In this document: positions 18,784-39,439 of the stretch, in pieces
Position numbering within the stretch: the stretch's first letter is position 1
Layout: every line of letters begins with the position of its first letter
Source of the DNA: an uncultured archaeon
Lineage (GTDB): Archaea > Altiarchaeota > Altiarchaeia > JAFGQM01
Length of the DNA: 64,000 nucleotides
Direction of reading: 5' to 3'
Assembly: GCA_964619365.1 (NCBI GenBank)
Contig: CAZUDQ010000003.1
Span: forward strand, 35,960-99,959
Program-made: the position numbers and the translations under genes
Notes under the pieces: model-generated
The model's input: the letters and a program-made list of their open reading frames with translations, nothing else
The model's database searches: none
What the model was told of the DNA's origin: nothing

Positions 18784-19233
18784 ATGCAGATTAACCGACG
18801 AGGGAGCTCGGTTCTTGAAGCCCCCTTTATGATTCTTGCAAGCGTTCTTGTCATCGTCTTTTGCCTTTGGATAGGAATTAATTCGATGGAAAAATTTGTC
18901 AAGGGTTCAGAGGAGCAGGCGGCAGCACAGGCTGCAAGTGACCTTTATGAGGCCGCAAGGATAATCTCACTAGGGTATGACAAGAATTCAATGCGATATT
19001 TTTTGTCTGTTCCTGATTGTTGCAGGATAAAGGTGGACGGAGAACTGAGTGCAATTTTTGTCAACGAATCTGACGGGGAAAGAATAATTACAGGGCCAAT
19101 GGCAATATCTGGAGTACGAATAGAATCGGCATGCGGTCCAATTGAATCTGGAGAACACAACCTACTACTAGAATACTGGGAAGATGGGCAAAAAGTTATT
19201 ATTTCAAAGGAAGGGGCAGTCTGCAGCGATTGA
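18784..19233 (+). CDS. minor pilin-like protein (class III signal peptide)
   Basis: MQINRRG|SSVLEAPFMILASVLVIVFCLW followed by a beta-rich domain. Confidence 0.8.
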   Translation: MQINRRGSSVLEAPFMILASVLVIVFCLWIGINSMEKFVKGSEEQAAAQAASDLYEAARIISLGYDKNSMRYFLSVPDCCRIKVDGELSAIFVNESDGERIITGPMAISGVRIESACGPIESGEHNLLLEYWEDGQKVIISKEGAVCSD

Positions 19234-20959
19234 CCTGATGGTATTCTTGTTGCTTTCATCTCTTGCCATTTCTTACCTCTCCTTACAATCGGCACAATTA
19301 TCATCAAGATCCCAACGCAGGATGGAAACTGAAAGCTTAAACGAAATGGCTGAAATAAGCCTTTCGGCGCTTCTTTCCTCTAAGGCAGATATTGAGATTA
19401 GCGTCCTGCAGAAAAAAGCGGCAAGTAGGATAAACTCCCCCGTTACAAATGATGCAAGAAAGATACTTGATTACTTAAAACTGGCTGAGGAGGCCATCTC
19501 AGAAATAGAAAGCAGTAATGATATCTCGGACAATCCCCATATAGCATACATCCGACATAAGTTTTCAGAGATAGATTCGTATTTAGGGCTTGCCCAGGAC
19601 TCACTGATTGGATTTAGCGCTTCCCAGATAGACTCAGCCCTTAGTGATTCTCTTGCGCCTTGCCAAGCCCTTGGCGAGCTTTCCTCAATTTTCTCCTCAT
19701 TTGTCGGGTTTGATTTTAGTTGCGATACCATAACCTCTGAAATACTAAGTTATCTTGGAGAGGAACTCTCAAGTGTCGCTATGGATTCAAATGACCTTGT
19801 TTCGTTTATAGATGAAGCAGAAAGCCTATTGGACGTGGAGATTAAGGAAAAAGCAAGAGAACTACGCTGCAAACTTTCAGACATTAGGCAAGCCATTGAG
19901 TCCGTATTTGGCTATATCGAAGTGGGAGTCAACCCCGATGTGTCGCCTCTCGAACTTTTCCCGGTTAAGCTCAACGCAGAAAGTTACACCATAAGGCAAG
20001 TCACAGAAGACGCGCTAACGAGTGGAGATTTCTTTGCAAAAACAGACTGGGAAAGGACTGCAATCGCGTCAGTCGCTTTAACATATTTTAGGGGAAAAAA
20101 CCTAACAACAGGCCTATTCGAAAAAGGCTTTTTGGAGGAAAACATACATTCCCAGCCCAGTGGAGATTTGATTGGCGAGTACATTGAAATCACTCCAGAA
20201 CATTCTCTTCAAAAAGAGGACAATATGACTCTTAGCGGGGTCTACACAGAGGACAAAAGTATTTCCCTAAAAGCAAAGATAACTGGTGCAGGTTATCTTG
20301 GACTGCAAGCGGCATTTTTTGGAAAGGAACTTGGTTCTGGCAGGCAAAAGACCGTATATTTTGAAGGAGGGGAATACATACTAAACAGCACAGCATACAT
20401 CACAAACGCGCACGAAAGGACATATAATGGAAGCGCGGTTAAAGGTGTTACAAGAGAATCTCCCATAAGCGTTTCTGAAGAAGTTTTTAGTCATAAGGAC
20501 ATACTCACTCCGGAAATAAATTTTGAAGGAAACTTAATCAAAACAACAATAACGCGACCCTTTTCCTCAGTCTTTTGGCTTGAACTGGGAAACGCCACAT
20601 TTGAGCCGCAAAACTATGCGTTCCAAATAGAGCATATTATTGAAACAAAAAGCGGCGAGTATATAATAAACAGTTCTGTAGCCGACGGCGAGTATGACCC
20701 GAATGCCGAAAAGTCAGCAGTTTTAGGCGCCCTTGCAATAGACAAAACAAGCATCTTTCCCGAGCTGAAGAGTTCTATTGAATCAGAGATAAAGCGCATA
20801 ATACCAAATTATAGTTATTCTTTTAATCTCTCTTGCCCCTGCAAGGAGGGAATTTATTTTGGCAGTGGAAGCCCGCAAGGAAGATATGGTATTGCAAGAA
20901 GGCATTTTTGGATTGATGACTGCGAGTGTGATGTGACACTTATTCTCTGGAGGGACTAG
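19184..20959 (+). CDS. large minor pilin-like protein with helical insertion
   Basis: QRKG|QSAAIDLMVFLLLSSLAI; ends in the beta strand VTLILWRD, similar to the C-terminus of the 21388 protein. Confidence 0.8.
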   Translation: MGKKLLFQRKGQSAAIDLMVFLLLSSLAISYLSLQSAQLSSRSQRRMETESLNEMAEISLSALLSSKADIEISVLQKKAASRINSPVTNDARKILDYLKLAEEAISEIESSNDISDNPHIAYIRHKFSEIDSYLGLAQDSLIGFSASQIDSALSDSLAPCQALGELSSIFSSFVGFDFSCDTITSEILSYLGEELSSVAMDSNDLVSFIDEAESLLDVEIKEKARELRCKLSDIRQAIESVFGYIEVGVNPDVSPLELFPVKLNAESYTIRQVTEDALTSGDFFAKTDWERTAIASVALTYFRGKNLTTGLFEKGFLEENIHSQPSGDLIGEYIEITPEHSLQKEDNMTLSGVYTEDKSISLKAKITGAGYLGLQAAFFGKELGSGRQKTVYFEGGEYILNSTAYITNAHERTYNGSAVKGVTRESPISVSEEVFSHKDILTPEINFEGNLIKTTITRPFSSVFWLELGNATFEPQNYAFQIEHIIETKSGEYIINSSVADGEYDPNAEKSAVLGALAIDKTSIFPELKSSIESEIKRIIPNYSYSFNLSCPCKEGIYFGSGSPQGRYGIARRHFWIDDCECDVTLILWRD

Positions 20960-20960
20960 A

Positions 20961-21425
20961 TTGAAATTCAGATACTTAAACAAAAAAGGATGGCTCGTCT
21001 GGTCCTGGTCAAAAGCAGGCATGCTAATCATATTTTTTGCCTGTATGGTAATGCTTCTTTGTGCGTTTTCCCTATTGTCAACAGCTTTTCTTGCAGATTC
21101 AGCTCAAAAGCTCTCCTCAGACATTGTTAATTCCTTGCTTATGGTTTCCTCTTCAGAAGACGGCAGCTATCTTGAGATAAATCTTCCTCCTTCGGTACAA
21201 GGCGAACCTTATCATATGACGGCAAACAAGACTGAATCCGGTCTTGTTGCAATAATAGTTTCTGTACAGACTCAAAAAGGCAAGATGATTGGAATCAGCG
21301 TCTTGCCAACCCCATATCACAATGCTTCCTTAGGCATTTTGCATCAATCAGATTCAAAGGAACACAAATTATGTGCCAATATACACAATGATACAACATA
21401 TCTTTATCCCAAGGGATGTTTTTAA
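20961..21425 (+). CDS. minor pilin-like protein (class III signal peptide)
   Basis: NKKG|WLVWSWSKAGMLIIFFACMVMLL; INLPPSVQGEPY motif. Confidence 0.78.
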   Translation: MKFRYLNKKGWLVWSWSKAGMLIIFFACMVMLLCAFSLLSTAFLADSAQKLSSDIVNSLLMVSSSEDGSYLEINLPPSVQGEPYHMTANKTESGLVAIIVSVQTQKGKMIGISVLPTPYHNASLGILHQSDSKEHKLCANIHNDTTYLYPKGCF

Positions 21426-21873
21426 TTCGAAAAAAGGGCAGCTTGGGCCACAGGCTCTTGAGGATTTGCCGATAAGCGCCATAGGCTTGATATGTGTGAT
21501 TATCCTTGTCATGCTCCTTCTAAAAGTAGGCCTTGGTGCGATAATCCCTTCAGATATAAGCGAAGCGTCTTCTTTTGGGCAAAGAGCACTTTTCCTTCTT
21601 GTAAAATCCTTTTCAAGCAGTGAATCAAAAGGAATTTCATCATGGGCGATAGATGCGGCAAAAGTCTCCGAAATGAATCACAAAAACTATCCACTCAAAG
21701 GCGTTCTCGCATCCCCCCAATACGGCTTTTTTGCGCAAGTTAAATCCTGTTGCGGTGAATGGAAGTTTGGAGGCAGTAAGGAGCCCGCATTATCATTTCA
21801 TGCGCCTGTTTCAGTCCTGTGCGAAGACAAACTCTGCGACGGCGATATAATATTAAGGATCTGGAAAAAATGA
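21388..21873 (+). CDS. minor pilin-like protein (class III signal peptide)
   Basis: SKKG|QLGPQALEDLPISAIGLICVIILVMLL; ends IILRIWKK; start position uncertain. Confidence 0.75.
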   Translation: MIQHIFIPRDVFNSKKGQLGPQALEDLPISAIGLICVIILVMLLLKVGLGAIIPSDISEASSFGQRALFLLVKSFSSSESKGISSWAIDAAKVSEMNHKNYPLKGVLASPQYGFFAQVKSCCGEWKFGGSKEPALSFHAPVSVLCEDKLCDGDIILRIWKK

Positions 21874-24467
21874 AAAAGAAAGGATATATCCCAGCATTTA
21901 GCATAATCGGCGTTGTGTTTTGCGTCATTGCAATCTCAGTATCGTTATTATGGGAACTTGGTTCTGCAGGAGACTTTGGAATCCACGCCCAGGATATCGC
22001 CTGGCTAAGGATGAATTCGGCAATAGAAAGTTTTGAAGAGGAGATACGAGACGATCTTTCGCGTACACTGGGTTTATGTGCAACAAAGGCCGGGCAGATA
22101 CCAGAAGGAACTACAATAAACCCTTATCTTGAGATGGAGGAAAGGGTGGGCTGGGAAAAAATCCTTGAGAATATATCCCTGTGCACTAAGGAAAATACCT
22201 TATCCCATATAAGGGATATTGCTCATGAAAAAGGCGATGACTGGGCCCTTTTCACTTTTGATTCGAACATCACCCTTGCAATTGATTCTACCCAAAAAAT
22301 TGAGTTCTTGCCAGATCTTGAGGGCCCCTGGATGTCTGGAAAAATAAAAATCCCGGAAATTACAATAACTGCAAAGGAAGGCTGGAGCGCACGATTTACA
22401 AATAGGACGATAAATGCCAGGATATCAGGTCGTTTACATGACATGTACCTTCGTGCAAGAGACTTTCATTCCAAGTATCCAGACCGGCTTAGCTGGACCT
22501 TAAGCGGAGCGCTCTACCTGCGTGCATACCTTTCAGCTTACATAACAGGAGGAACCGGACCATACCTTTATGAGGGCGATTTTCAAACAGACCCGGTCGC
22601 AACAATACTTTTTGGAAAAATTGAGGAAATAGAAGAGTTAATAAAAGACCCACTGGATTCAATAACAGGGATTGGGGCGATACCCGCTGCGACATGGCTT
22701 TCGGAGTGGGAGTTTTTAAGCGAGCCTTCCTTTTTGCCGCCGGGAGTCGATATGGACATTTCAGATTATGACCAGGCAAAAACGGCGATTATGGGAACTG
22801 AGAACCCGGAAGAAGTCTTTGAAGAAACATGCGAAGGAGATTCTTCGGGAAATTGTTTATCCTCTACAGACCTAGACACTTTAGAGGAAGAAGCACTTGC
22901 CACGGCAAAAGAAATGGAGCGTTATGAAAAAGTTAGAGATTTGTCAGATGACTGGCTTTCGAGCTATTCAACAACAAGGTATCATAAATGTGACAATAAA
23001 GACACCTGTGAAGATGACTTAGAGGATTGCAATGAAGATTGCTGCGAGATGTATGAAGATTGCGAAGACGACTTAGATGATTGCAATGATGATGTTGATG
23101 AATGTGAGGACGACTGTGACGACTTAAGAGAGGATTGCAAGGACCTCAAAAAGGAGTGCAATCAATATAAAAAGGATTGTAAGGCCTGCAAAAAGGAATA
23201 CTGTAAACCAGATTATGAATACTGCAAAGACCAATATGGCGGATACCCTGATGACAAAAAAGGCGCATGCTACTATAGCGCCCTTGATACGCTTTTTGGC
23301 AGCAGTGATGAAGACATCTGCGATGATTTTAGGGATGATTCAAAAGAGGTACTTAGCGCGATAACTTCAGCCCTGGAAAACGGGCAGTCACAGACATGCA
23401 AGTATAAGATAAAAGAAGGGAGCGACGAAGCAGGAGGCAACAAAATTTTTAATTCAAATGAATATGGTCTCGGGTTTAATGATGTCGACACCTATTGTTC
23501 CTCAGCGATAACTTCAGTCACGGAACTTGCCTCAATTGTTAAAAATATTCTCACAGAAGAAAAACTAGGTTCAGATTCATGTTCAAAAGATAATTCAGGC
23601 GAGTGCATTTCAAATGATAACTGTGGAGACGCAGGAAATTGTAATGTTCGTTGTAATTTTGTTTCTTGCTCGCGAGGAAATGACATTTATCAATGTGTGG
23701 GCGATTATCAATCAGGAAATAGAGTCGTCACATGCAGTAAGGGAAGAGATGTTTTTGATACCTGTAGATGTAGATGCCGTCCGACAATAAAAATTGTGGA
23801 AGAGACGCAAAAACCAGTGCAAAAAGTATATGAATTTGCAAAAAAGACGTATGACGCTTTAGAATTGCATTATGAAGCAACAAATGACCAAATAGAGGTT
23901 CTTTCCAATATTAAAAAGTTTACATCAGCAGTAGAGTCTCTTGATAAAAATAAAGATTCTTTTGACATCTATTCAAAAATAACTCCGATTTATGTTAAGT
24001 ATGATTCTGGGGACGGTGCGCATTGTTATGTTAATCCGACCTATATGGCACGGGAGGGGGGTGTATGTGCGGACTATCTTGAATCCGCAGGGCTTTATAG
24101 CGCCCAAATTGCCGCCGCAGCCCTAATAACTGTATTTAGCGGCGGGGCCGGAACGCCACTTCTTGACTACGCAAAAGACTTCTTTCCAGTGATATTTGAG
24201 ACAAGTGCCAAATTTAGCATAACAGAAAGCATAACAGACGACAACTCACGAAATATACTTGTCAATATCGCAGAAGGTGGTGGCGAGCTTTACACATACG
24301 CTCCGCTCGAATTCGAGATATACAAAGAACATGAGTTTAAGGTAGAGTCGCTTACTCTGGGGCGAATAATCTTATATCTTTACCTTCCCATAACACAAGG
24401 TGGAATCGGACGAGCAATAGAACGGATGGGTGCAAAAAACGAAGGCGAGAGTTGTCCTACAGAGTAA
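21870..24467 (+). CDS. giant (865 aa) pilin-like surface protein with Cys-heptad stalk and hydrophobic hairpin
   Basis: MKKKG|YIPAFSIIGVVFCVIAI from ATG 21870 (ATGA overlap); Cys-rich acidic repeat; late AAAALITVFSGGAGTP segment. Confidence 0.8.
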   Translation: MKKKGYIPAFSIIGVVFCVIAISVSLLWELGSAGDFGIHAQDIAWLRMNSAIESFEEEIRDDLSRTLGLCATKAGQIPEGTTINPYLEMEERVGWEKILENISLCTKENTLSHIRDIAHEKGDDWALFTFDSNITLAIDSTQKIEFLPDLEGPWMSGKIKIPEITITAKEGWSARFTNRTINARISGRLHDMYLRARDFHSKYPDRLSWTLSGALYLRAYLSAYITGGTGPYLYEGDFQTDPVATILFGKIEEIEELIKDPLDSITGIGAIPAATWLSEWEFLSEPSFLPPGVDMDISDYDQAKTAIMGTENPEEVFEETCEGDSSGNCLSSTDLDTLEEEALATAKEMERYEKVRDLSDDWLSSYSTTRYHKCDNKDTCEDDLEDCNEDCCEMYEDCEDDLDDCNDDVDECEDDCDDLREDCKDLKKECNQYKKDCKACKKEYCKPDYEYCKDQYGGYPDDKKGACYYSALDTLFGSSDEDICDDFRDDSKEVLSAITSALENGQSQTCKYKIKEGSDEAGGNKIFNSNEYGLGFNDVDTYCSSAITSVTELASIVKNILTEEKLGSDSCSKDNSGECISNDNCGDAGNCNVRCNFVSCSRGNDIYQCVGDYQSGNRVVTCSKGRDVFDTCRCRCRPTIKIVEETQKPVQKVYEFAKKTYDALELHYEATNDQIEVLSNIKKFTSAVESLDKNKDSFDIYSKITPIYVKYDSGDGAHCYVNPTYMAREGGVCADYLESAGLYSAQIAAAALITVFSGGAGTPLLDYAKDFFPVIFETSAKFSITESITDDNSRNILVNIAEGGGELYTYAPLEFEIYKEHEFKVESLTLGRIILYLYLPITQGGIGRAIERMGAKNEGESCPTE

Positions 24468-24469
24468 CA

Positions 24470-27400
24470 CTACTCCTTATTGTTGGTGTTGCATCCCTCG
24501 TTTGTTGAGACCCACTCAGTCGTCTCCTCAGCGTACTTATCCCCCGCAAGCCACATAGAGCCAACAGCTGCCGCGGGCGCTGCAAGACGGGCTGTCCAAC
24601 TCAGGATTTTATTTCCAGAGTTTCCTGCAAACATTCCAGTTTTAAGGTAGTTTCCCACTCTACTGGAAATTGATGTGCTACCCTTTGGAACATAAGTGTA
24701 ACTCTTGCCGTCGTTTATAGATTTTAAATTTGTGACTTCGGCGGTTTTTCCATCACTATAAGTCACTTTAAATGTTTCGCCTTTCTCAAGCGGTACCTCC
24801 ATTGGAGTGGACTCATAAATAGTATCACCCATAGCATATATGCTGTCTGAAGTAACTTTTTCATAGTAATTACCATCACCAAGAGCCATATATTTATCAG
24901 GTATTGCTTTTCCAGACCCAATAAGATCAACCTGAACATCACTACTTACTTCTTTCCAAACATCTCCCTGATGCACTGTTACTTTAGCTCCACCTACTTC
25001 CTTAACTGGGACGGTTATATCAGTAGTCTTTGTACCTGCAGGCACATTTACTGACTCACCATCAACCGTAGTCACACCTTTTACAGTACTTGTAGCGACT
25101 TTTGAAACAGGTTGGGCAAATGTGCTTCCAAGGGCCCCTCCGATGTACATCCCAGTACCAAATCCTGAAAAGAAGTTCTTTGTATCTGCGTCACCTATGA
25201 ACATGCTTGTGACCGAAGTTCCAAGTGAAAGGGTTTGAGTAAGAGAACCAAAACCAGTTGCACCACCCAACAACCCGAGTGCCGCTCCAGTTCCTGCTCC
25301 AACCCAGAATGAACCCGAACCAAACATACTAAGCGAGTCGCCTTCCTCTTCTTCCATGCAGCTCACATCGCCGCAATGGCAGTCGTTGTCATAGCCGTCA
25401 TCACAAGTCTTTGGGTTGCTACGCGGGTCTTCACTTTCTGTTGGAACGCCTTCAGTTTGTATATTGTACCATGCCCACTGGTTTACACCAGAATAAGCGC
25501 ACAGATAGACGGTTCCGTCACACTGTGCCGTCTGGCATTCATGATCCTTGTTGCAGGCGACGTCATCCTCAGTTACCCATTTATAACCATTATTTGATGT
25601 CGTTGTATTTGCAGATGAACCGCTGTTCCACTCAAGTTTCCTGCATATTTTATAATTACCGTCGTCAACTCCTGCTGTCGTCCCGCCATCTGCGTCCCAG
25701 ACCATGTAACATGGCGTATTGGCGTTGCAGGTACAAAGGTCGCCTGAACCTTCTCCTGTGCGGTCTACAAGGCCGTCACAGTTATTATCCCAGCCATCAT
25801 TGCAGATTTCAACGGTGTTTCTATATTCAGCTGGAAGGTCGCTGTCACAATTAAGGCACATCCCATAATACTTATCTTCCTCACCTGAACTGTAATAGAC
25901 TATGCAGGCTAGGTCTTCATCAGTTATTCTGCCATCGGAATTAACGTCAGCACAGTCAAGCTTATAACCAGTAATTTGCTTTTTGCTAATAAGCATCATA
26001 AGGATTTCATCAACTTCATCAATCTTGAGGTCCCCGTTAATATCGCCCTTTATCCCACGGCAGGCATCAAGACTGTAAATCTCTAAACAGTAAGACGGAA
26101 TTACCTGACCTGATGCAAGAAGCGTATCCGGATTAGAAAGCTCCATTCCTAAAAACATCTGCGCACAGTAACTGTCATCAGTATTTATTACACCGTTTTG
26201 GTCAAAGTCTGTTGCCGCGTAGACTTCAACAGGTAAGTATATCCCACGCTCCTCAACTTTTATCAATTTGTTTAGAAGAGCAATATCGTCATCGCCTATT
26301 TTTTTATCGCCATCAAGGTCGCCTGCAAGTGGCGATTCTAAATAAAGGTCAAAGCATGCCCCGCCACTCATGTCACCCGGCCATTTTCCTGAAACTACAT
26401 TTGTAAGGCAAATTAAATCATCTTCGTCAACATCAGAATCAAGGTCGTAGTCTGCACACTTGGCGTATTCTGCACGCGCGGCCTGAGTCAACGGAAGAAT
26501 CAGATTCTCAAGTATTGCAATATCATCGGTATCAAGTTGTTCATTCCCGTTAAGATCGCCCACACGGTCTTCACAAATTATTGTCCCTTCGATTATCCCG
26601 CCTTTTGCAGATTCAAAACAGTTTATGAGCATTGTTTCACTGACCTGCAGGATATTTGATTTGTAATCTGAAACGCATTTTCGTACTTCCTCCATGCCGT
26701 CACACGTCGTTTCATTTGTTGCAAGAGGGCATGTTCTTGACTTTGCGCGGGAGATATCCGCGACATAAATCTTCTCATAGGTCACAATATCCTGTCCATC
26801 TGCAAAAATGCTAACCTTGTATATTCCCTCACCGTTTGGCGCCTTAAAACTCGCGTCGTACCCGAGTTCGCCCAAATCCCAGGTCAGTTTTTTAAGACTG
26901 CCATAGACATTCGCATAAAGCATCTCAAGTCCAGGTATCTCTTGTCCTTCAAATTCAGGGTATGCAAAAATCTCAAAATACTCATCAGCCAAAAGAACAG
27001 GCTTGTCGACGTCTGTTCTCATAAGAAGATTTTCACTGGCAGAATCAGATTCAAAATAAGTCACGAAATCACCACCATATACTGTCCCATCCTTTTCCAT
27101 GATTACCTTTACTAGGGCGCGGTATTCTCCTTTGAAAGGAACATTTAACTCAACTTTCCAGGTTTCTGATAAATTGTCAAAACTAAGATTCTTTGGTTCT
27201 GATGTTATGAGTGCGTCACCGTCAAGGTAGTATACCTGAACGGATTTTGTCAGAATGTTAAAATCTTTTGAGTCTTTTACATCAATATCATATTCAAGCC
27301 TGATTGGTTGGGTCTTCTTTATGGGTAAGATAGGCTCGACACTAAGATTTTCTGAAGTGTAAGCACTGGTGTTTACACTATACGCAAGGGGAAACGTGCC

Positions 27401-27556
27401 GGTGTATCCATCATACTGTGCCTGTATTATTATAGTGTAGGCCCCCTCTCCTTCTGGACCGTAACCAACAGCAGTCCAGCGGGCAAGTGAAAACGGTATC
27501 TGTGCAAACAAAAAAACGACTATAAATACTAGTGCTAGAGTTTTGGCATATTCCAT
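24470..27556 (-). CDS. secreted dockerin-repeat protein with variable Gly-rich C-terminal payload, paralog 1
   Basis: Signal peptide, beta-rich (Ig-like) domains, three dockerin-like pairs (e.g. GDINGDLKIDEVD...ADVNSDGRITDED), EICNDGWDNNCDGLVD, Gly-zipper helices. Confidence 0.85.
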   Translation of the reverse strand: MEYAKTLALVFIVVFLFAQIPFSLARWTAVGYGPEGEGAYTIIIQAQYDGYTGTFPLAYSVNTSAYTSENLSVEPILPIKKTQPIRLEYDIDVKDSKDFNILTKSVQVYYLDGDALITSEPKNLSFDNLSETWKVELNVPFKGEYRALVKVIMEKDGTVYGGDFVTYFESDSASENLLMRTDVDKPVLLADEYFEIFAYPEFEGQEIPGLEMLYANVYGSLKKLTWDLGELGYDASFKAPNGEGIYKVSIFADGQDIVTYEKIYVADISRAKSRTCPLATNETTCDGMEEVRKCVSDYKSNILQVSETMLINCFESAKGGIIEGTIICEDRVGDLNGNEQLDTDDIAILENLILPLTQAARAEYAKCADYDLDSDVDEDDLICLTNVVSGKWPGDMSGGACFDLYLESPLAGDLDGDKKIGDDDIALLNKLIKVEERGIYLPVEVYAATDFDQNGVINTDDSYCAQMFLGMELSNPDTLLASGQVIPSYCLEIYSLDACRGIKGDINGDLKIDEVDEILMMLISKKQITGYKLDCADVNSDGRITDEDLACIVYYSSGEEDKYYGMCLNCDSDLPAEYRNTVEICNDGWDNNCDGLVDRTGEGSGDLCTCNANTPCYMVWDADGGTTAGVDDGNYKICRKLEWNSGSSANTTTSNNGYKWVTEDDVACNKDHECQTAQCDGTVYLCAYSGVNQWAWYNIQTEGVPTESEDPRSNPKTCDDGYDNDCHCGDVSCMEEEEGDSLSMFGSGSFWVGAGTGAALGLLGGATGFGSLTQTLSLGTSVTSMFIGDADTKNFFSGFGTGMYIGGALGSTFAQPVSKVATSTVKGVTTVDGESVNVPAGTKTTDITVPVKEVGGAKVTVHQGDVWKEVSSDVQVDLIGSGKAIPDKYMALGDGNYYEKVTSDSIYAMGDTIYESTPMEVPLEKGETFKVTYSDGKTAEVTNLKSINDGKSYTYVPKGSTSISSRVGNYLKTGMFAGNSGNKILSWTARLAAPAAAVGSMWLAGDKYAEETTEWVSTNEGCNTNNKE

Positions 27557-27598
27557 TTTTAAATTTAATAGATAATTATTGCAGGAACGCTTAAAAAG

Positions 27599-30500
27599 TT
27601 AGCAACTAGTATCCCTTGATACCCATTCTGCTGTACTTTTTGCGTAGTATGTCGCAGCTTTTGATGAGGTAAATGCGCTAAACGCAGGTATAAATGCGCG
27701 ACCAAATATAAGTTTTCCTGCAGTAAAGGCAAAACTTGTCTGGTCCATGCCCCCCCAAGGACTTATCGTATTTAGCATACCCTTACCAAAGTCAAGCATA
27801 CCTTGTCCTACACCTTTGGCCGCCCCAGTCCAAGTAGCACCTTCGCCAAGGCTAGTGAAACCTTTACCAATGCTGGATGCACCAGCCTTAATGCCATCCC
27901 AGCCAGATTGAGCAAGATCCCCCATATCACCCCATAGTGTGGATTCCTCAGACATACTAAAATACTCAAAATTCATGTCAGGCATTTGGAAACTACTATC
28001 AGCAAAACCAAATGATTCACTCAGTCCACTAAACCCTGGGAAGGAAGTAGTACTACTCGCCCCACTTTCACCTCCAATACCAATGTAGTTAAGCGCGCTA
28101 GAGTAGGTATCCATACTTGTTAAAGAATCAAAACCCTTACCTATCCCGCTTATCGTGCTCATAACACCATCTTTAACCGAGAGTGCAGCATCCTTAACTG
28201 CGCTTGCAGCACTCGAAATACCCTCTGTGACAGAGCTTATCGCTTGTGAGCCCAGTTGAGTGGTTCCTGCAACAAGACCCTTTTCCATAAGTGTGTCAAA
28301 AGAATTGATAAGAATATCCTTCACACCAGCCCCATTAAGCAGGCCGCCTACGCCGCATCCCATTGATATCCCACCCATAGCAGCGGATAGTTCAGCTGGC
28401 CCCCCTGCAAAGGTGTTGATAAGTGAGACAAGGCTTGCAGCAAGTGAAATTAAAAGTGTTGCCCATCCAGGTAGGAATATACTTGCTATTAAAAATAATG
28501 CAAAAAAGAGCCAGAAAAGCCAGCTATCAAAAATACTTCCTTGTTCCTCAACAGCGCATTTCATATCTCCGCATATGCAGTCGTTGTCATAGCCGTCATC
28601 ACAAAGTTTTGGCTCGGCTTTGGAATCATCAGTCTCTGTTGGCAAGTCCCCAGGATTCTCATACCAAAGCCATCCGCCACCATCAAATGCACAGTAAAAT
28701 CTTGAATCGGCGCATTGAGCATATTCACATTCTTTGTCTTCATTACAAACAAGGGTTTTTGGACTTACCCACTCGAATTGGTCCTCTTCCTTGTCTATAG
28801 CACTTTCATTTACCCTCCAAGATTCCTTTCTACATACAAGGACATTTGCATCGTTTATGCCCGCTATGGTACCACCGTCTTCATCCCAGACCATAGCGCA
28901 CGGCGTGTTTGAAGTGCATGAGCAGAAATCCCCCCCCGTTCCTGTGGTCCCGGTTCTGTCAATCAGGCCGTCACAGTCGTTGTCCCATCCATCATTGCAG
29001 ATTTCCATGATATCAAGGTACTCGCGCGGGGTGTATTCATCACATTTCAGGCAGGCGTAATATTGTTCCATATCGCCTGCAAGATAAGAACTTACACAGA
29101 ATATGTCTTCAGAGGACATCTGATTGTCCTTATTGACATCAGAACAGTTCATGTCATATCCTGTTATCTTACCCTCGACAATAAGAGTTATTAAAATCTC
29201 ATCAATTTCATCAATTTTATAGTCGCCGTTAATATCACCCTTAACACTGTTGCAAGAGTCAAGATGATAGATTTCCAGACAGCTTGTGGGTATTGTAACA
29301 ACATTACCAATAAGGTTATTCGTGTTGTTTACTTCCACTCCTTCAAACTTCTTTGCACAGATTGCGTCATATGAATCAATCCGTCCGCTTTGGTCAAAGT
29401 CTGCCGCACTAAGAATTCGCTCGTGCATTAAGATGCCACCCGTATCTGCGTCAACTAGTTTTCGCATAAGGATAAGATCAACCTCGGTTATCTTCCTGTT
29501 GCCATCAAGGTCGCCTGCAAGGGGCGAGTCAAGCACCATGTCAAAACAAACCCCGCCATTTAGGTCGCCCCACCATTTACCCGCAATGACGTTTGTCATA
29601 CAGGTCAAATCTGCTTCGTCAACATCAGAATCGCGGTCGTAATCAGCACATGACAAGTAGTCTCTTCTTGAAGGCTGTGGCAATGGAAGTATTATAGTCT
29701 GGAGTATTGCAGCATCACTCACAGTTAGTTTGCCGTCACCATTTAAATCTCCTTTATTCCATCCACATATCACTGCGCTGACAACAGTATCTCCCCTTAC
29801 CGATTTAAAACAAGAGATAAGGTCTGTTTCAGTATAATTGACACCCATCCCAGCTTTTGAATCAAAAACACAACGCCGTACATCGCGCATGTCCTCGCAA
29901 CTGGAATTTCTCACTAAAGGACAAGTTGGTGCTTTTGCCTGGGAAGTATCTACAATATATATTGTTTCTGACGAGGAAAAATCTTGTCCCTTTCCATAGA
30001 AATTGAATGCATATGCACCTTCTAAGGTGGGTGCTGAGAAATCAGAAGAATAAACCCCGTCCTTTTCATTCCAAACAAGGGCGCGGTCGTTTCCATTGAT
30101 ATTGGCCCTAAAGATAATGAATTCCTTCAGGACATTTCCGCCAAAAATTGGCAGAAGGGTTGTTGAGAACGCTTCTGTTGGCGTTAGTACTTTAGGACTT
30201 ATAGTATATTGCAATAATAAATCAGTCGAGGCGCTTTCGGATTCAAGATAACTTGCAAAATCCCCCAAATACGTCATATCGCCTTTTTGTGCAGTTACAG
30301 AAAGAAGCACTTTATAGTCACCCTTTAAAGGGGGCATCACAGTTACTTCCCAAAAGCCTGTTTCCGGGTTCTTGGAAAGTATGTTACTTGCATTTGCAAC
30401 AAGGGTTGTGCCATCGACAAAATAGAGTGACATGTTGTTTTCAAGCATGTCAAAGTCAGTGGAATTATCAATATGGATGATATACCCTAGGTTTATAGGA

Positions 30501-30751
30501 GATTTTTTGGAGGGAGTATACGCGGGACTTACACTTAATCCCTCACTTGTCGTTGTTTTCCCTCTGACGCGCAGGTCTATTGGGTATGCGCCCTCAAAAC
30601 CATCATAAATAGCCTTTATGAGAATTGTATAAAGACCTGCATCATCCGGGCTTTGCGCTACAGAGAGCCATTCGCCAAGACCAAAAGGAATCTGGGCTAG
30701 GATAAAGAGCAGTATTATTACTCCAACCTTGGGTCCGTCAAAATAGCGCAT
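27599..30751 (-). CDS. secreted dockerin-repeat protein with variable membrane-active C-terminal payload, paralog 2
   Basis: Colinear with paralog 1 up to CDDGYDNDCxCGDxxC, then hydrophobic helices and amphipathic repeats; ends YAKSTAEWVSRDTSC. Confidence 0.85.
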   Translation of the reverse strand: MRYFDGPKVGVIILLFILAQIPFGLGEWLSVAQSPDDAGLYTILIKAIYDGFEGAYPIDLRVRGKTTTSEGLSVSPAYTPSKKSPINLGYIIHIDNSTDFDMLENNMSLYFVDGTTLVANASNILSKNPETGFWEVTVMPPLKGDYKVLLSVTAQKGDMTYLGDFASYLESESASTDLLLQYTISPKVLTPTEAFSTTLLPIFGGNVLKEFIIFRANINGNDRALVWNEKDGVYSSDFSAPTLEGAYAFNFYGKGQDFSSSETIYIVDTSQAKAPTCPLVRNSSCEDMRDVRRCVFDSKAGMGVNYTETDLISCFKSVRGDTVVSAVICGWNKGDLNGDGKLTVSDAAILQTIILPLPQPSRRDYLSCADYDRDSDVDEADLTCMTNVIAGKWWGDLNGGVCFDMVLDSPLAGDLDGNRKITEVDLILMRKLVDADTGGILMHERILSAADFDQSGRIDSYDAICAKKFEGVEVNNTNNLIGNVVTIPTSCLEIYHLDSCNSVKGDINGDYKIDEIDEILITLIVEGKITGYDMNCSDVNKDNQMSSEDIFCVSSYLAGDMEQYYACLKCDEYTPREYLDIMEICNDGWDNDCDGLIDRTGTTGTGGDFCSCTSNTPCAMVWDEDGGTIAGINDANVLVCRKESWRVNESAIDKEEDQFEWVSPKTLVCNEDKECEYAQCADSRFYCAFDGGGWLWYENPGDLPTETDDSKAEPKLCDDGYDNDCICGDMKCAVEEQGSIFDSWLFWLFFALFLIASIFLPGWATLLISLAASLVSLINTFAGGPAELSAAMGGISMGCGVGGLLNGAGVKDILINSFDTLMEKGLVAGTTQLGSQAISSVTEGISSAASAVKDAALSVKDGVMSTISGIGKGFDSLTSMDTYSSALNYIGIGGESGASSTTSFPGFSGLSESFGFADSSFQMPDMNFEYFSMSEESTLWGDMGDLAQSGWDGIKAGASSIGKGFTSLGEGATWTGAAKGVGQGMLDFGKGMLNTISPWGGMDQTSFAFTAGKLIFGRAFIPAFSAFTSSKAATYYAKSTAEWVSRDTSC

Positions 30752-32987: not shown

Positions 32988-34298
32988 ATGAGTCTTAGGA
33001 AGATAAATCGTGAGAGGGATAAAAAGCATAAGTTCTCGATAGGGTCAAAGAGCCATTTTTCAAAACTAAAAAAAGGTTCACACAATCAAGCTCCCGCTCC
33101 AGAAAGTAACGAATCTGATGGTTACATCCACCCAAAAAAGGTCTATGTAGAAGGCGAAGGTCTTAGCCAAAACCTCAAGATGATTCTTGTTATAGCTATA
33201 ATCGCTGTTGCCGTTGTTGGCATAGAGCTAATACTCTGGGCAGGGGATCAGGATGCTGGTCCAAATACCCAAAGCAATTTAAATTCCACAGATAACAGTT
33301 CATCGAATGATACCCCTCTTGTCAATCTTACGTTATTAGAATCGGAGGATGACTATGTAGCGCCAAAAGCAGACTTATTAGCAAGTTCAATCGAGCTTTC
33401 CCCAGAGGAGCTCAGCGAAGGTGAAGTCGTTTCCATAACAGCAGAGTTTGAGAATAACGGAGAACTTGATGCGGAGAATGTAAGCTTAAACATATACGCC
33501 GGAGGAACCGAGATATATTCTGAAATAGTGACTATTCGCAGTGGGGAAAAGACCGAAATAGAAACTTCCTGGATTTCAGAAGGTGAAGGCTCAAAGACGA
33601 TAAAAGCCGAGGCCGACCCTGGAGACAATATTGATGAATCAGATGAGGGGAACAATGAAAAATCAGATTCCATTTCAATAGAAAAAAGCATATTCCTGGA
33701 CAGTTCAGATGAGTTTACATACCGTGGAAGGATTCTTGAGCTTGGTGATATATACGCGATAAAAAAGCTCATCTCAAACGATAATGATGCTTACTGTGGT
33801 GAGGACATGAATATTTTCTCGCTTTCAAAAAAGGACTCTCATCACTATTACCTTGATGTCCACACAAGCATTTATCGCAAGACAAATTATGCTGGCAACG
33901 AGGCTTTACTCCTTGCCGACGGCTCATGCAATTGGAACGGAGGGAGCAACATAATTTCTGGTACCGCAGGACATGTATTCAACGGTCCGCTTATGGGGCT
34001 TGGTCTAGGGTTTGAAGGCAGCAAACTTGTTGTAAAAGACCAAAACGGAAAAGAGGCAAGTGTCAGTTCAGGAGATAGCGCAGTAAAGTCTATAACACCA
34101 ATTGGCATAAAAATCGCGGATTGGCCCGAAGACGAACTTAATCTTTATACGACAAGCAAGGCAAATGGCCTTTTCCCGGAAGAATTCTATATTATAGAAG
34201 GCGGAAGGCGCATATATCTTTACCCCCTTGCATGGAATCCCGCGACAAAAGAGGCAAAAGTTGCTGTTGGCTACCAGTTTGAGATAACAACAGGGTAA
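32988..34298 (+). CDS. membrane-anchored CARDB-domain surface protein
   Basis: Basic N-terminus and one TM, then DLLASSI...ITAEFENNG...ADPGDNIDESDEGNN (CARDB). Confidence 0.8.
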   Translation: MSLRKINRERDKKHKFSIGSKSHFSKLKKGSHNQAPAPESNESDGYIHPKKVYVEGEGLSQNLKMILVIAIIAVAVVGIELILWAGDQDAGPNTQSNLNSTDNSSSNDTPLVNLTLLESEDDYVAPKADLLASSIELSPEELSEGEVVSITAEFENNGELDAENVSLNIYAGGTEIYSEIVTIRSGEKTEIETSWISEGEGSKTIKAEADPGDNIDESDEGNNEKSDSISIEKSIFLDSSDEFTYRGRILELGDIYAIKKLISNDNDAYCGEDMNIFSLSKKDSHHYYLDVHTSIYRKTNYAGNEALLLADGSCNWNGGSNIISGTAGHVFNGPLMGLGLGFEGSKLVVKDQNGKEASVSSGDSAVKSITPIGIKIADWPEDELNLYTTSKANGLFPEEFYIIEGGRRIYLYPLAWNPATKEAKVAVGYQFEITTG

Positions 34299-36899: not shown

Positions 36900-39437
36900 T
36901 TAGACCTTTCCTTTAGCGTGATGGCGACCCTTGCCATGTTTTCGAAGGATGGTTTTTGATTTCTTCTCTTTTTTCTTCCCGCCAGGCTTCTTTAATATTT
37001 GTCGTATCCTTCTTGTGCAAATATCAATAACAAAAAGAATGAGTGCACCAAGAAGTACATAGACTTCAAGCCCGTTTTGAACGGCTTGCCTTGATGTGGA
37101 TTCTTCGATAGTAAAATCGGATATGTCTGCTAAAAGTGATGAAAGCTCGGAGGGGAAATAAGTTCTTCCGCCTGAGGTTAAGGATATCCCGTCAAGTATT
37201 CCAAAGTCAGGTCCGAATGCCCCGTATTCTACTGGATAGTTTGTTGCGATAAGACAGGACGTGTTGCCTGCAACTACTGGAACAAAGCCTGTTTCCTGTG
37301 GCGAGTAATCAAAGAAGTAGGCGGTTTCAGAGGCGCGGGAAAGTTCCCTGATGTTTCCTGCCAGGTAAACTGCAGGTTTGTTGGAACTAGATATTATGGT
37401 AACAGTCGAGCTTTCATCGACACGCGCTTCAGGGCAGTTTAAGCTTAAATCGCCATTTCTGGCAATGTCACCGACTGCCCAGCTAAGTGCTGAAAGAACA
37501 AGTCCAGAGTCCTCCTTGGAATAAAGGGATGGTGCCCAGTCTATACCTGAATCAACAGTAAGTGCAACACTTCGTCCAAGGCCAAATCTCCAAACAGTAA
37601 GGATTGGATCAAGTTGCGGCGTTGCAAGAATTAGCTTTGCCTCCGATTTCTTTGATACATAGTTTAAGTTAGATGCTGTGGCATTTCCACCTGTTTTGCC
37701 TTCTGTTATGAAGTGGTTTGAATCAATTACCATTATGGGCAAGCCTTCTGACTCTTCCTGTTCGCTTTCTTCCATTGCGCCAAGGACCAGTTTTACCTTG
37801 CTTGTGTCCTGCGGACCAAAGTACACGCCGTCGCCCGCACTTGATATTCCCTTCATAAACGAAGTGTCTGTATCAAAGCCGACACCTATGGCATGTACGC
37901 TTCCACCGTCTTTTTTGATGTCAGACGCGTCTTCAAAAGCGCTTACCGGATAGTTTGTTATACCGTCTGATATCAGGATTACGTGTTTTGCGCCAGTCGC
38001 ACCCGAAAGTATTCTTTTTGCTTCCTCTAAGCCTTCTGTGACATATGTCCCGCCCCCAAATTGCAAGCTTTTGATTTTGCCTACAAGCATATCGGGGTCA
38101 TCAACAGGCAAAAGCGGATAGAGCAAGTACGAGCGCGAATTAAATACCACAAATGCAATATTTGCTCTGCCGGACAAATCTTCTATCATCTGAATCGCAA
38201 GAGCTTTTTCCACGTCAATTTTCGTGTTTCCTGAAGTGGACCCACCAGTAGACCCGGATATATCAAGGACAATCACCACGTTTAGGACTTCTTTTGTACC
38301 CCGCTCTTCTTCTGAAGAACGAACTGGGAGAATGCCCTCAAATTCGCTTTCATAATATTCTCCATTCTCAAAGGATTCGGAGCCGCCTACTGTAAAAAGA
38401 CCCCCCCCATTGCGCAGGAAATCCCTGAGGCGTGAAACATCGCCAAGCTTCCGTAGGGGGATGTCATCAAGGATTATTGCATCATACTGAGAAATTTTTG
38501 AAGGCAGGACACTAACAATCTCAATATCAAAAGAATCCATCAAAACTTGCTCCAAAGGCGTATTGGAATCATTAGTCACCATAAGTACACTAGGTCGTCT
38601 TGTTACAATAACTGCCTTATTGAACTGGTTGTTCTCAGAAAACGTGTCCCCTGTCAATGGCGATATCCTGGCGATTATCTTATGGGGTCCCTGACTTGCA
38701 AACTGTGTTTCAAAGGGTATACCCATAATAGGAATCGTTTGCTCGATTTCCTTATTTACAAGAATCTTTTCATCGGCCTGCACGATAAGCGTGTATTTCT
38801 CAGGCACACTTAAACTGGATATCTCAACAGACCCTGAATAAATGGCACCAATCGGACCTGCGTCTGCCCCAAGAATATTAGAAATCCATACCTCTTTACT
38901 ATTGACTTCAGGAGCAAGGGCGTATATCTGTGCTCCCGTATCCGATGCAAAAGAGGCAACACTTAAGGGATTTTTGCCGGAATTGCTGTTGCCGTCGCTT
39001 TCGACTATAACTGCAGTCCCCTTTGTCGGCGAACTGACTATTGCAGAATATATCGCGTCCCCAAGTGCGGTTTTTTCTCGCTCGCTCATCTCGATTATCT
39101 CTGATTTTGCAAGTCCTCCAACCATAGAATTCAAACTTTTTTGGATGTCTCCTGCCAAAGGTTCGCCACCAACATCCATACTCGCACTCTTATCAGATAT
39201 CACCACAATCGAGACGGCTTCAGATTCTATGCTTTCTTCCGAGATGTAATAGGGCATCCCAAGAGCTATAAAGATTACAAAAATGACGACACATCGCAAT
39301 AAGAACTGCAGGCGCCCCACCCCTGCGCGCAGTAAACCCCTGTTTACAACGGCGAAGAGAGCTACTGCAAGGATACCCAGCCAAAGCACCCATGCCTGAC
39401 CAAATCCTATTTGCGCACCAAGTAGTTCAATAGTCAT
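36900..39437 (-). CDS. membrane vWA-domain / glutamine-amidotransferase-like protein
   Basis: MIDAS motifs DKSASM and DISGST, ISDG, WRFGLGRS; TMs at both ends. Confidence 0.85.
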   Translation of the reverse strand: MTIELLGAQIGFGQAWVLWLGILAVALFAVVNRGLLRAGVGRLQFLLRCVVIFVIFIALGMPYYISEESIESEAVSIVVISDKSASMDVGGEPLAGDIQKSLNSMVGGLAKSEIIEMSEREKTALGDAIYSAIVSSPTKGTAVIVESDGNSNSGKNPLSVASFASDTGAQIYALAPEVNSKEVWISNILGADAGPIGAIYSGSVEISSLSVPEKYTLIVQADEKILVNKEIEQTIPIMGIPFETQFASQGPHKIIARISPLTGDTFSENNQFNKAVIVTRRPSVLMVTNDSNTPLEQVLMDSFDIEIVSVLPSKISQYDAIILDDIPLRKLGDVSRLRDFLRNGGGLFTVGGSESFENGEYYESEFEGILPVRSSEEERGTKEVLNVVIVLDISGSTGGSTSGNTKIDVEKALAIQMIEDLSGRANIAFVVFNSRSYLLYPLLPVDDPDMLVGKIKSLQFGGGTYVTEGLEEAKRILSGATGAKHVILISDGITNYPVSAFEDASDIKKDGGSVHAIGVGFDTDTSFMKGISSAGDGVYFGPQDTSKVKLVLGAMEESEQEESEGLPIMVIDSNHFITEGKTGGNATASNLNYVSKKSEAKLILATPQLDPILTVWRFGLGRSVALTVDSGIDWAPSLYSKEDSGLVLSALSWAVGDIARNGDLSLNCPEARVDESSTVTIISSSNKPAVYLAGNIRELSRASETAYFFDYSPQETGFVPVVAGNTSCLIATNYPVEYGAFGPDFGILDGISLTSGGRTYFPSELSSLLADISDFTIEESTSRQAVQNGLEVYVLLGALILFVIDICTRRIRQILKKPGGKKKEKKSKTILRKHGKGRHHAKGKV

Positions 39438-39439
39438 TT

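Follow-up and report, generated by a model that had tools for sequence, protein, structure and literature searches.

Tandem dockerin-bearing surface proteins of an uncultured altiarchaeon combine a conserved scaffold with an orphan middle and a cysteine-bearing tail

The window analysed here, a 64,000-nucleotide (nt) stretch of DNA covering positions 35,960–99,959 of the forward strand of contig CAZUDQ010000003.1 (assembly GCA_964619365.1; uncultured archaeon, Altiarchaeota, JAFGQM01), carries a tandem pair of genes for large, cysteine-rich proteins, termed paralog 1 (P0001) and paralog 2 (P0002). The pair belongs to a real and unusual lineage-specific family of archaeal surface proteins, the known kind to which it can be assigned being the membrane-anchored, dockerin-bearing surface proteins. 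Both paralogs share a long scaffold, a set of Gly-rich helices and a C-terminal motif with a cysteine, and between the helices and this motif lies a stretch that differs completely from one protein to the other. A sequence-only reading of the locus had likened this arrangement to a polymorphic toxin with a swappable payload; the valuable part of that idea is that the tail is clamped back to the scaffold, which is now supported by the covariation of two cysteines across the family. The reading preferred here, to which an even chance can be given, is that of a surface protein held in the cell’s own membrane by a four-span anchor, with its tail tied by a disulfide to the base of the ectodomain; within it, we infer the disulfide, the topology, the cytoplasmic position of the loop and the mechanical role.

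Architecture and conservation of the pair

P0001 and P0002 align end-to-end by BLASTP, with 402 identities over 1066 positions (38%, E = 0). In a global alignment read in 50-column windows, identity lies between 26 and 66% up to approximately residue 746, is 16–24% at approximately 793–995, and returns to 28% in the last window. Both proteins carry the junction motif CDDGYDNDC[H/I]CGDxxC, followed by S[M/I]FxSxxFW, as well as an upstream copy of the former that reads CNDGWDN[N/D]CDG; the segments quoted for the third helix (SGFGTGMYIGGAL in paralog 1, GGISMGCGVGGLL in paralog 2) and for the C-terminal ends (YAEETTEWVSTNEGC and YAKSTAEWVSRDTSC, respectively) were all found. The common order is thus a colinear region up to CxCGDxxC, three Gly-rich helices, ~170–200 amino acids (aa) that are fully divergent, a fourth helix, and an end of the form Y-A-x-x-T-x-E-W-V-x5-C. 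The best BLASTP match between the two middles spans 12 aa at E = 5, i.e. there is no detectable similarity. The description of tandem paralogs with a constant scaffold colinear to the junction, unrelated middles and re-converging ends, as given in the sequence-only reading, is therefore confirmed by BLASTP, by the windowed alignment and by the presence of every quoted motif.

The same architecture was observed directly in thirteen sequences with the CxC form of the junction, namely P0001, P0002, P0003, P0004, P0007, P0015, P0017, P0069, and open reading frames (ORFs) in loci L007, L008, L009, L010 and L016. The extra cysteine of the junction, the F..FW motif, GxxxGxxxG in the third helix, the terminal tryptophan and the terminal cysteine are invariant in all of them, and because these positions are invariant the architecture goes beyond chance.

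Run against 1.84 billion representatives, a profile of six members matched 454 proteins at E ≤ 0.001, of which 64 reached E ≤ 1e-30. At the stricter threshold, matches occur in 8 of 61 genomes of the phylum, all in the window’s own taxonomic family (the genome carrying the window and 7 of the 7 others), with none in the 53 genomes of the other taxonomic families; where relatives of these genes carry a source name, it is ‘Candidatus Altiarchaeota archaeon’ or ‘uncultured archaeon’. A metagenome scan gave at least eight confirmed stretches in at least six loci among 603 pattern matches listed, with short-form CxC-family genes at locus L016 only among the metagenome matches listed. Genes of the CxC family are often arranged as tandem pairs or triplets, as in the window, L007, L009 and L016, and stand singly at L008 and L010. 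At L009 (3076–9195 of a Candidatus Altiarchaeota archaeon contig), a CxC form is followed by a form without the closed tail and by the start of a third gene, so the locus evidently expands and mixes anchor types. P0001 and P0002 would represent two old paralogues of a lineage-specific, membrane-anchored cell-surface family whose members probably resemble adhesins or stalks.

In its mature form, each would have a secreted ectodomain of ~710 aa, with beta-rich N-terminal domains, calcium-binding repeats, two MopE-like motifs and 28 disulfide-forming cysteines. Export is suggested by a probable Sec signal peptide, at which the stretch AQ[IV]PF..[AG].W is conserved among homologues. The best-conserved part of the P0001 scaffold is its dockerin/EF-hand-like repeat region; Dockerin_1 (PF00404) matches three stretches in each paralog (scores in Table 1), and exceeds the Pfam cut-off in 9 of the 13 subfamily members. 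Each protein has two copies of the acidic cysteine motif C-x-D-G-x-D-N-[DN]-C-D-G-x-x-D, the second being rebuilt as CxCGDxxC. The motif resembles Cu-binding_MopE (PF11617), which scores 18.0 bits in P0001 and 20.6 bits in P0002, under the cut-off of 27, and matches 11 of the 13 members at E ≤ 1 (best 8e-7); P0004 additionally shows a weak match to NF033662, an acidic double-disulfide repeat. In an alignment of 29 sequences, 28 cysteine columns are identical in every full-length family member, and further ectodomain cysteines come as a pair (columns 1234 and 1313, in 10 rows), a pattern that would be expected of a fully disulfide-bonded ectodomain.

The middles are of a different character. 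Across the 13 members they range from 35 to 202 aa and are of low complexity, rich either in G/S/T/A/P or in A/E/K, with weak mutual resemblance among the A/E/K-rich ones only (E = 0.002 and 0.017). They change quickly: the same-genus orthologues of L008 and L010 have ectodomains that are 72.5% identical and conserved tail flanks, but middles that differ by a 64-residue low-complexity insertion, and in P0003/L007b, the same-genus positional counterpart of P0001, the middle has 39 residues as against 170. Neither middle was found elsewhere by tblastn in the whole genome, where each hit its own gene only (next best E = 0.26). A search of 5.8 billion clustered proteins, which covered near-length and shorter proteins, gave no relatives of either middle at near lengths (for P0002, residues 800–1050), nor of P0001 812–990 among shorter proteins. 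Likewise, Pfam and NCBIfam assign no family to any tail of the 13 members or of P0001–P0004. The proposal of a beta-rich middle in paralog 1 and a helical one in paralog 2 agrees with AlphaFold2, although in both the predicted local distance difference test (pLDDT) is mostly below 50.

The sequence-only reading proposed cataloguing the sequences between the flanking motifs, expecting many unrelated payloads. The middles are indeed unrelated, the A/E/K-rich ones being weakly alike, but they do not look like payload domains, being of low complexity and without family. As orphan stretches in which even close relatives differ by indels, with no spare copies in the genome, they are also difficult to reconcile with a swappable payload. 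In relatives without closure (P0005, P0010, P0073 and L016a), H1–H3 are followed by similar G/A/T/P-rich sequence as a plain C-terminal tail. From these sequences, we read the middle as a fast-evolving spacer, probably made into a loop in the CxC subfamily by an added fourth helix and return motif, and not as a cassette.

Cysteine pairing, anchor helices and the side of the loop

All 13 CxC sequences end in [YF]-x6-W-x(5-8)-C, with the cysteine 0–10 residues from the C-terminus and 6–9 positions past the invariant tryptophan. Outside this subfamily, P0009 and P0013 lack CxC but have a lone extra cysteine ~15 residues upstream (Y-C) together with a distal tail W…C. As observed across the alignment, a lone extra ectodomain cysteine, at either of two ectodomain positions, is accompanied by a distal tail cysteine in 15 of 16 rows, and none of the 13 rows without the former has a cysteine in the distal half of the tail. 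The sequence-only reading held that the terminal cysteine bonds back to the scaffold, and named its lack of conservation as a refutation. The terminal cysteine proved to be invariant in 13/13 CxC members, and the covariation gives real support to a putative disulfide between the terminal cysteine and the unpaired scaffold cysteine near the junction. Such a bond would place the C-terminus outside the cell, and would therefore call for an even number of membrane spans.

AlphaFold2, run on residues 560 to the end of each paralog with the 29 aligned sequences, predicts a confident Cys-rich domain and then three helices (H1–H3) past the junction in both proteins, with a late helix (H4) before the end motif, as the sequence-only reading had outlined. 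In the P0001 model, short strands lie directly after the junction (735–737) and at E-W-V (1014–1016), and H4 packs with H2 and H3 in what appears to be one bundle. Compared with three- and four-helix bundles by VIA-align, residues 207–457 of this model superimpose over ~80 residues at a root-mean-square deviation of 2.6–3.8 Å, with H2, H3 and H4 aligning together; these matches (Z ≤ 8.1) are generic and below the homology level for helical bundles, and serve for the geometry of the model alone. Foldseek against the PDB returned nothing at E ≤ 0.001 for the P0001 tail model, a search that barely probed the Cys-rich part of the ectodomain, and the ESM Atlas gave no usable match for the P0001 tail.

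Most members have a strongly hydrophobic segment right past the junction (1.9–2.75). Over the H1/H2 region, the best 17-residue hydropathy is 1.45–2.75 in twelve CxC members and 1.27 in P0001, the least hydrophobic of the 13. From the weak, Gly-rich helices of paralog 1, the sequence-only reading had argued for insertion into a target membrane. Within the family these helices are an extreme and not the rule, and this argues for an ordinary hydrophobic anchor in the cell’s own membrane and against a target membrane. GxxxGxxxG occurs in H3 of 13/13 members, and no glycine-zipper family of Pfam matches any of them at E ≤ 1. As a separate observation, CPPC, CPVC or CEGC pairs stand at the turns of the anchor helices in 6 of 14 CxC tails, at the H1–H2 turn of P0003, P0007, P0017 and the L007 ORFs and in the H2–H3 loop of P0004, with none in P0001 or P0002; they may serve in redox reactions or bind metal. 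An archaeosortase-type anchor was considered and rejected: NCBIfam gave no match of this type (PGF-CTERM and the like) at E ≤ 0.1 in P0001–P0004, and what follows the last helix is a polar or acidic W-x(5-8)-C motif, not the basic end of a PGF-CTERM-type sorting signal.

In the preferred reading, the ectodomain would be held in its own membrane by a compact bundle of the small-residue helices H1–H3, past which a low-complexity, fast-evolving loop would lie in the cytoplasm. The chain would re-cross the membrane via H4, bringing the last ~15 residues against the membrane-proximal cysteine motif, where the terminal cysteine would bond to the single unpaired cysteine of CxCGDxxC. Tied twice, by the chain into H1 and by the disulfide into H4, the ectodomain would possess a mechanical lock suited to a force-bearing surface protein. 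The cytoplasmic position of the loop is held with moderate confidence; it is favoured by the up-down bundle in the model, by comparison with tails placed after an odd number of helices, and by a mild charge bias over the 13 sequences (K+R versus D+E: 18/38 in the linker before H1, 8/23 in the H2–H3 loop, 23/22 after H3, and 17/8 before H4).

Several observations weigh against this reading, the first group concerning the cysteines. The fragment P0073 has the lone extra cysteine and no tail cysteine, and L008 and L010 have one more lone cysteine in the H2–H3 loop; should this loop be external, strict parity would no longer hold. Furthermore, 12 of the 23 inner branches are open in a tree of the 167 shared columns, whose resolution is too low for the origins of the cysteine pair to be counted; the 13 CxC rows may have a single origin, and the covariation is therefore taken to rest on about two origins and not on fifteen.

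These points lend themselves to an improbable alternative in which the co-occurrence of the cysteines reflects shared ancestry, the anchor has an odd number of spans, and the tail is cytoplasmic and unclamped, its cysteine acting inside or binding metal and the CxC cysteine serving a separate role (e.g. MopE-like metal binding). The covariation does fall mostly in one subfamily, and the tree is unable to demonstrate that it arose independently; several members have a weak H4, the C-terminus is modelled at low confidence, and P0073 is an exception. Against this stands the recurrence of the pairing in P0009 and P0013 with the extra cysteine at another column, both cysteines being missing from P0010, which the tree places closest to these two; moreover, the other extra ectodomain cysteines are always paired, so a lone one is unusual.

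The covariation would fit equally well if the tail cysteine bonded the CxC cysteine of a neighbour, either a copy of the same protein or its tandem paralogue, to give covalent dimers or a cross-linked lattice. Glycine-zipper helices drive helix–helix association, and the invariant GxxxGxxxG as well as the frequency of tandem pairs and triplets are in keeping with such an intermolecular clamp. The single CxC gene at L008 and at L010 indicates that a heteromer is not obligatory, and on balance an intermolecular bond is assigned only a one-in-ten order of likelihood.

The second group concerns the membrane segments. H3 (0.85–1.64) and H4 (0.31–2.31) are weakly hydrophobic, the H4 of P0003 (0.31) not being a convincing span, and the C-terminal part is modelled at a pLDDT of only 55–68 in P0001 and below 50 in P0002. 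In addition, the 13 middles, including the two of the window (24611–25114 and 27743–28330), contain no N-x-S/T sequons against 6.0 expected from composition, a value of zero being reached in 4 of 5000 composition shuffles, although sequons number 46 against 42.8 expected in the ectodomains and 2435 against 1774 expected in the long ORFs of the genome. This depletion weighs against a loop in the cytoplasm, since no such shortage would be expected of a neutral loop inside the cell.

The same observations can be accommodated by a two-span hairpin, in which H1 and H2 cross the membrane and H3, the middle, H4 and the tail remain outside, so that the cysteine clamp closes a surface loop at the foot of the stalk and the loop varies under diversifying pressure, e.g. 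from viruses or partner cells. The C-terminus is again outside, which fits the covariation; H3 and H4, with the weak P0003 segment, need not span; the middles differ even between same-genus orthologues; and an absence of sequons suits a region that meets the glycosylation enzyme and in which glycans are selected against. This alternative, unlikely but the most substantial of those weighed, is opposed by the AlphaFold2 models, which pack H3 with H1/H2 (pLDDT 80–94) and H4 with H2/H3 in an up-down manner that puts the middle opposite the ectodomain, and by the charge bias, which fits an inside loop. The middles are also of low complexity and mostly predicted to be disordered, and a site beneath a 700-aa ectodomain is poor for recognition. 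The sequon depletion itself extends to the post-H3 tails of the 11 relatives counted (nine without closure, together with P0009 and P0013), with 0 against ~3.8 expected, and is thus not tied to the loop, because tails without closure show it too. The absence of sequons had also been considered as support for a cytoplasmic loop, and this argument was dropped, as the depletion exceeds composition and is found in relatives without closure.

A related and improbable idea gives the closed tail a function of its own, as a module with a hypervariable loop at the cell surface, set between a glycine-zipper helix and a clamped C-terminus and differing per paralogue and species, that could serve in recognition of partner cells, viruses or self and non-self, or in contact with a neighbouring membrane. 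If true, it would represent a new archaeal way to present a variable peptide.

The four-span reading carries its own interest. Little is known about how uncultivated archaea with small genomes hold large surface proteins in the membrane, and the family offers a concrete, testable design, with a calcium- and disulfide-stabilised stalk, a glycine-zipper bundle as anchor, and a last helix that would be joined to the stalk by a covalent bond. Confirmation of this bond would also fix the membrane topology and provide a handle for studying cell–cell and cell–surface attachment in this salt-lake lineage. To our knowledge, no other archaeal surface protein has a polytopic anchor closed onto its ectodomain, again if the bond is confirmed, and a narrow literature search on this theme found no description of one.

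Comparison with toxins and other known systems

Polymorphic toxin systems (Zhang et al. 2012, PMC3482391) share with the pair a constant N-terminal part, a variable part past a fixed junction, and tandem paralogues. Here, however, the variable part is internal, of low complexity and without a toxin fold, the C-terminus is conserved, and no immunity gene lies downstream. Toxin families of Pfam and NCBIfam gave no match in P0001–P0004 or in the 13 members. The absence of an immunity gene from the locus, as stated in the sequence-only reading, holds: no more than 42 nt lie between the two paralogs and 3 nt between the P0001 stop and the end of the convergent 882-aa gene, and the only ORFs of at least 80 aa listed there are antisense ones contained entirely within the two genes. 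Searches by genome tblastn and length-limited protein comparison found no spare toxin cassette, nor the module on other scaffolds, and Pfam detects no PT-HINT pre-toxin domain in P0001 or P0002.

A pre-toxin-like domain does occur further afield. In the distant relatives P0034 (1290–1443) and P0063 (272–420), a Hint/PT-HINT-like domain lies directly past the same cysteine junction, a point of likeness to polymorphic toxins; in P0034 it scores 33.7 bits (cut-off 27.7) and sits ahead of a C-terminal domain of ~385 aa. Three further paralogues in the window’s genome (loci L003–L005; C1:110021–112126, C1:54926–56872 and C4:49031–50842; open frames of ~1620 aa) have an N-terminal membrane helix, a dockerin/Cys scaffold, a CGDGxCxxxExxxxCPxDC motif and immunoglobulin-like repeats. 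Their C-terminal domain, also ~385 aa and unassigned, lies past CxDGWDNDCxGGDxxC, is helix-free, and differs from the tail of the pair. The position of the HINT-like domain suggests autoproteolytic release of this domain in some long-form relatives. A second lead, the A/E/K-rich middle of P0004, matches a type III translocon model far below threshold (18 bits versus 540, E = 8e-4). Neither the HINT nor the translocon lead bears on P0001 and P0002.

The toxin model, in which Gly-rich helices would carry a disulfide-looped internal payload across or into a target membrane, therefore receives only a very slim likelihood. The constant scaffold with its variable stretch is real, and the HINT-like domains and the sub-threshold translocon match can be cited for it. 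The 13 members, however, contain no toxin, pore-former or glycine-zipper family, their middles, some as short as 35–40 aa, have no relatives at the lengths searched and are not duplicated in the genome, the locus leaves no space for an immunity gene, the weak helices of paralog 1 are a family extreme, and HINT is missing from both proteins of the pair. The case also cautions against taking every constant scaffold with a variable stretch for a toxin system.

Other systems offer partial parallels. As in dockerin-bearing, cellulosome-type proteins (PF00404), both paralogs have at least three tandem EF-hand-like calcium-binding repeats, but these occupy the central part of a Cys-rich stalk that is anchored in the membrane and has no enzyme module, and no match to cohesin (PF00963) was found in the window’s genome, which is 85% complete. 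The acidic cysteine motif found twice per protein resembles the MopE type (PF11617) and NF033662, although P0001 and P0002 fall below the cut-off and the second copy holds an unpaired cysteine that co-varies with a C-terminal one; similar Cys-rich cores have been aligned with teneurins (PMC3278476).

Archaeal S-layer stalks and anchors of the tetrabrachion or SlaB type are likewise large, glycosylatable and beta-rich surface proteins, from which the family differs in having a multi-helix Gly-zipper bundle in place of a single C-terminal span. Small glycine-zipper membrane proteins (GlsB/YeaQ/YmgE-like, and the Gly-zipper families of Pfam) have short Gly/Ala/Ser-rich helices with GxxxGxxxG. The motif is shared with H3, but the pair has no Pfam match to them and its helices would anchor an ectodomain of 700 aa. 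The hamus is known from Altiarchaeota, relatives of the window’s organism, and its protein is described as soluble, 97 kDa in size and of beta-sandwich type, with no helix predicted apart from the signal peptide (PMC4460559). Identity with the hamus was rejected on a comparison by description, given that this protein is portrayed there as soluble and anchorless (PMC4460559) and that the family is absent, at E ≤ 1e-30, from 53/53 other genomes of the phylum.

Feature coordinates and genomic neighbourhood

Table 1. Coordinates within the window of the features of the two paralogs and of the convergent gene cluster.
Feature	Position	Strand	Basis
Paralog 1 (P0001), whole gene, 1028 aa	24470..27556	-	ORF and translation; Dockerin_1 39.6 bits (cut-off 22.9)
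P0001 residues 1–25, probable Sec signal peptide (…AQIPFSLA|RW)	27482..27556	-	Hydrophobic 19-mer scoring 2.5; putative cleavage site
P0001 residues ~331–552, dockerin/EF-hand-like Ca-binding repeats	25901..26566	-	Pfam Dockerin_1, three stretches; windows of 46–66% identity
P0001 residues 718–733, junction motif CDDGYDNDCHCGDVSC; extra unpaired Cys C728	25358..25405	-	Sequence; CxC alignment
P0001 residues 741–814, SMFxSxSFW and helices H1–H3	25115..25336	-	AlphaFold2 helices 748–767, 770–784 and 790–814, pLDDT ~80–88; invariant columns; hydropathy
P0001 residues 815–982, variable middle, beta-rich, orphan	24611..25114	-	AlphaFold2 mostly pLDDT <50, some strands 50–76; no similarity to P0002; no homologues
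P0001 residues 983–1007, helix H4, Ala/Gly-rich	24536..24610	-	AlphaFold2 helix 983–1011, pLDDT 55–68
P0001 residues 1008–1022, C-terminal motif YAEETTEWVSTNEGC; W1015 and C1022 invariant in subfamily	24491..24535	-	CxC alignment
Paralog 2 (P0002), whole gene, 1050 aa; 42 nt upstream of paralog 1	27599..30751	-	ORF and translation; Dockerin_1 66.6 bits
P0002 residues 1–26, probable Sec signal peptide (…AQIPFGLG|EW)	30674..30751	-	Hydrophobicity and conserved stretch; putative cleavage site
P0002 residues 717–732, junction motif CDDGYDNDCICGDMKC; extra Cys C727	28556..28603	-	Sequence; CxC alignment
P0002 residues 738–807, SIFDSWLFW and H1–H3	28331..28540	-	AlphaFold2 helices 744–759, 762–781 and 786–807, pLDDT 88–94; best 17-mer 2.53
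P0002 residues 808–1003, variable middle, Gly/Ser-rich, predicted helical at low confidence, orphan	27743..28330	-	AlphaFold2 mostly pLDDT <50
P0002 residues 1004–1035, H4 region	27647..27742	-	AlphaFold2 helices 1004–1016 and 1020–1034, pLDDT <50
P0002 residues 1036–1050, C-terminal motif YAKSTAEWVSRDTSC	27602..27646	-	Sequence; CxC alignment
Convergent cluster of five ORFs, the last an 882-aa Cys-rich protein	18784..24467	+	ORF list; several with KKG/RKGQ pilin-type N-termini

The genome carrying the window is archaeal and 1.2 Mb in size, and the housekeeping genes near the pair (family B DNA polymerase, wyosine radical-SAM enzyme and S-adenosylhomocysteine (AdoHcy) hydrolase) are archaeal. 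DNA of the window is present in salt-lake metagenomes; in four salt-lake DNA runs the sequence is the same and comes as identical fragments, showing neither joints nor alternative middles, so that these runs are uninformative on population variants. No RNA run is among the sequencing runs listed as containing the sequence.

Downstream of paralog 1, and convergent to it, several ORFs of the five-gene cluster begin with RKGQ, KKGQ or KKG followed by a hydrophobic helix, and the 882-aa protein contains an extremely acidic, Cys-rich stretch, CDNKDTCEDDLEDCNEDCC; Pfam assigns no family to any of the five. The CxC gene or genes are flanked by a TctA-type transporter gene and a convergent pilin-signal-like cluster in the window, L007, L008 and L010, and in the latter three a homologue of the 882-aa protein, of 841–866 aa, is convergent to the CxC gene. 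The synteny of the pilin-like cluster with CxC genes is thus conserved in three related genomes, which makes a functional tie between them a candidate only.

Further from the pair, the products of two adjacent genes at 36900–41368 (-) combine a VWA domain with BatA N-terminal and DUF7408 domains, resembling a Bat/aerotolerance-like pair, and a 436-aa protein encoded at 32988–34298 (+), which has an N-terminal membrane helix as well as a CARDB domain, is probably a further surface protein.

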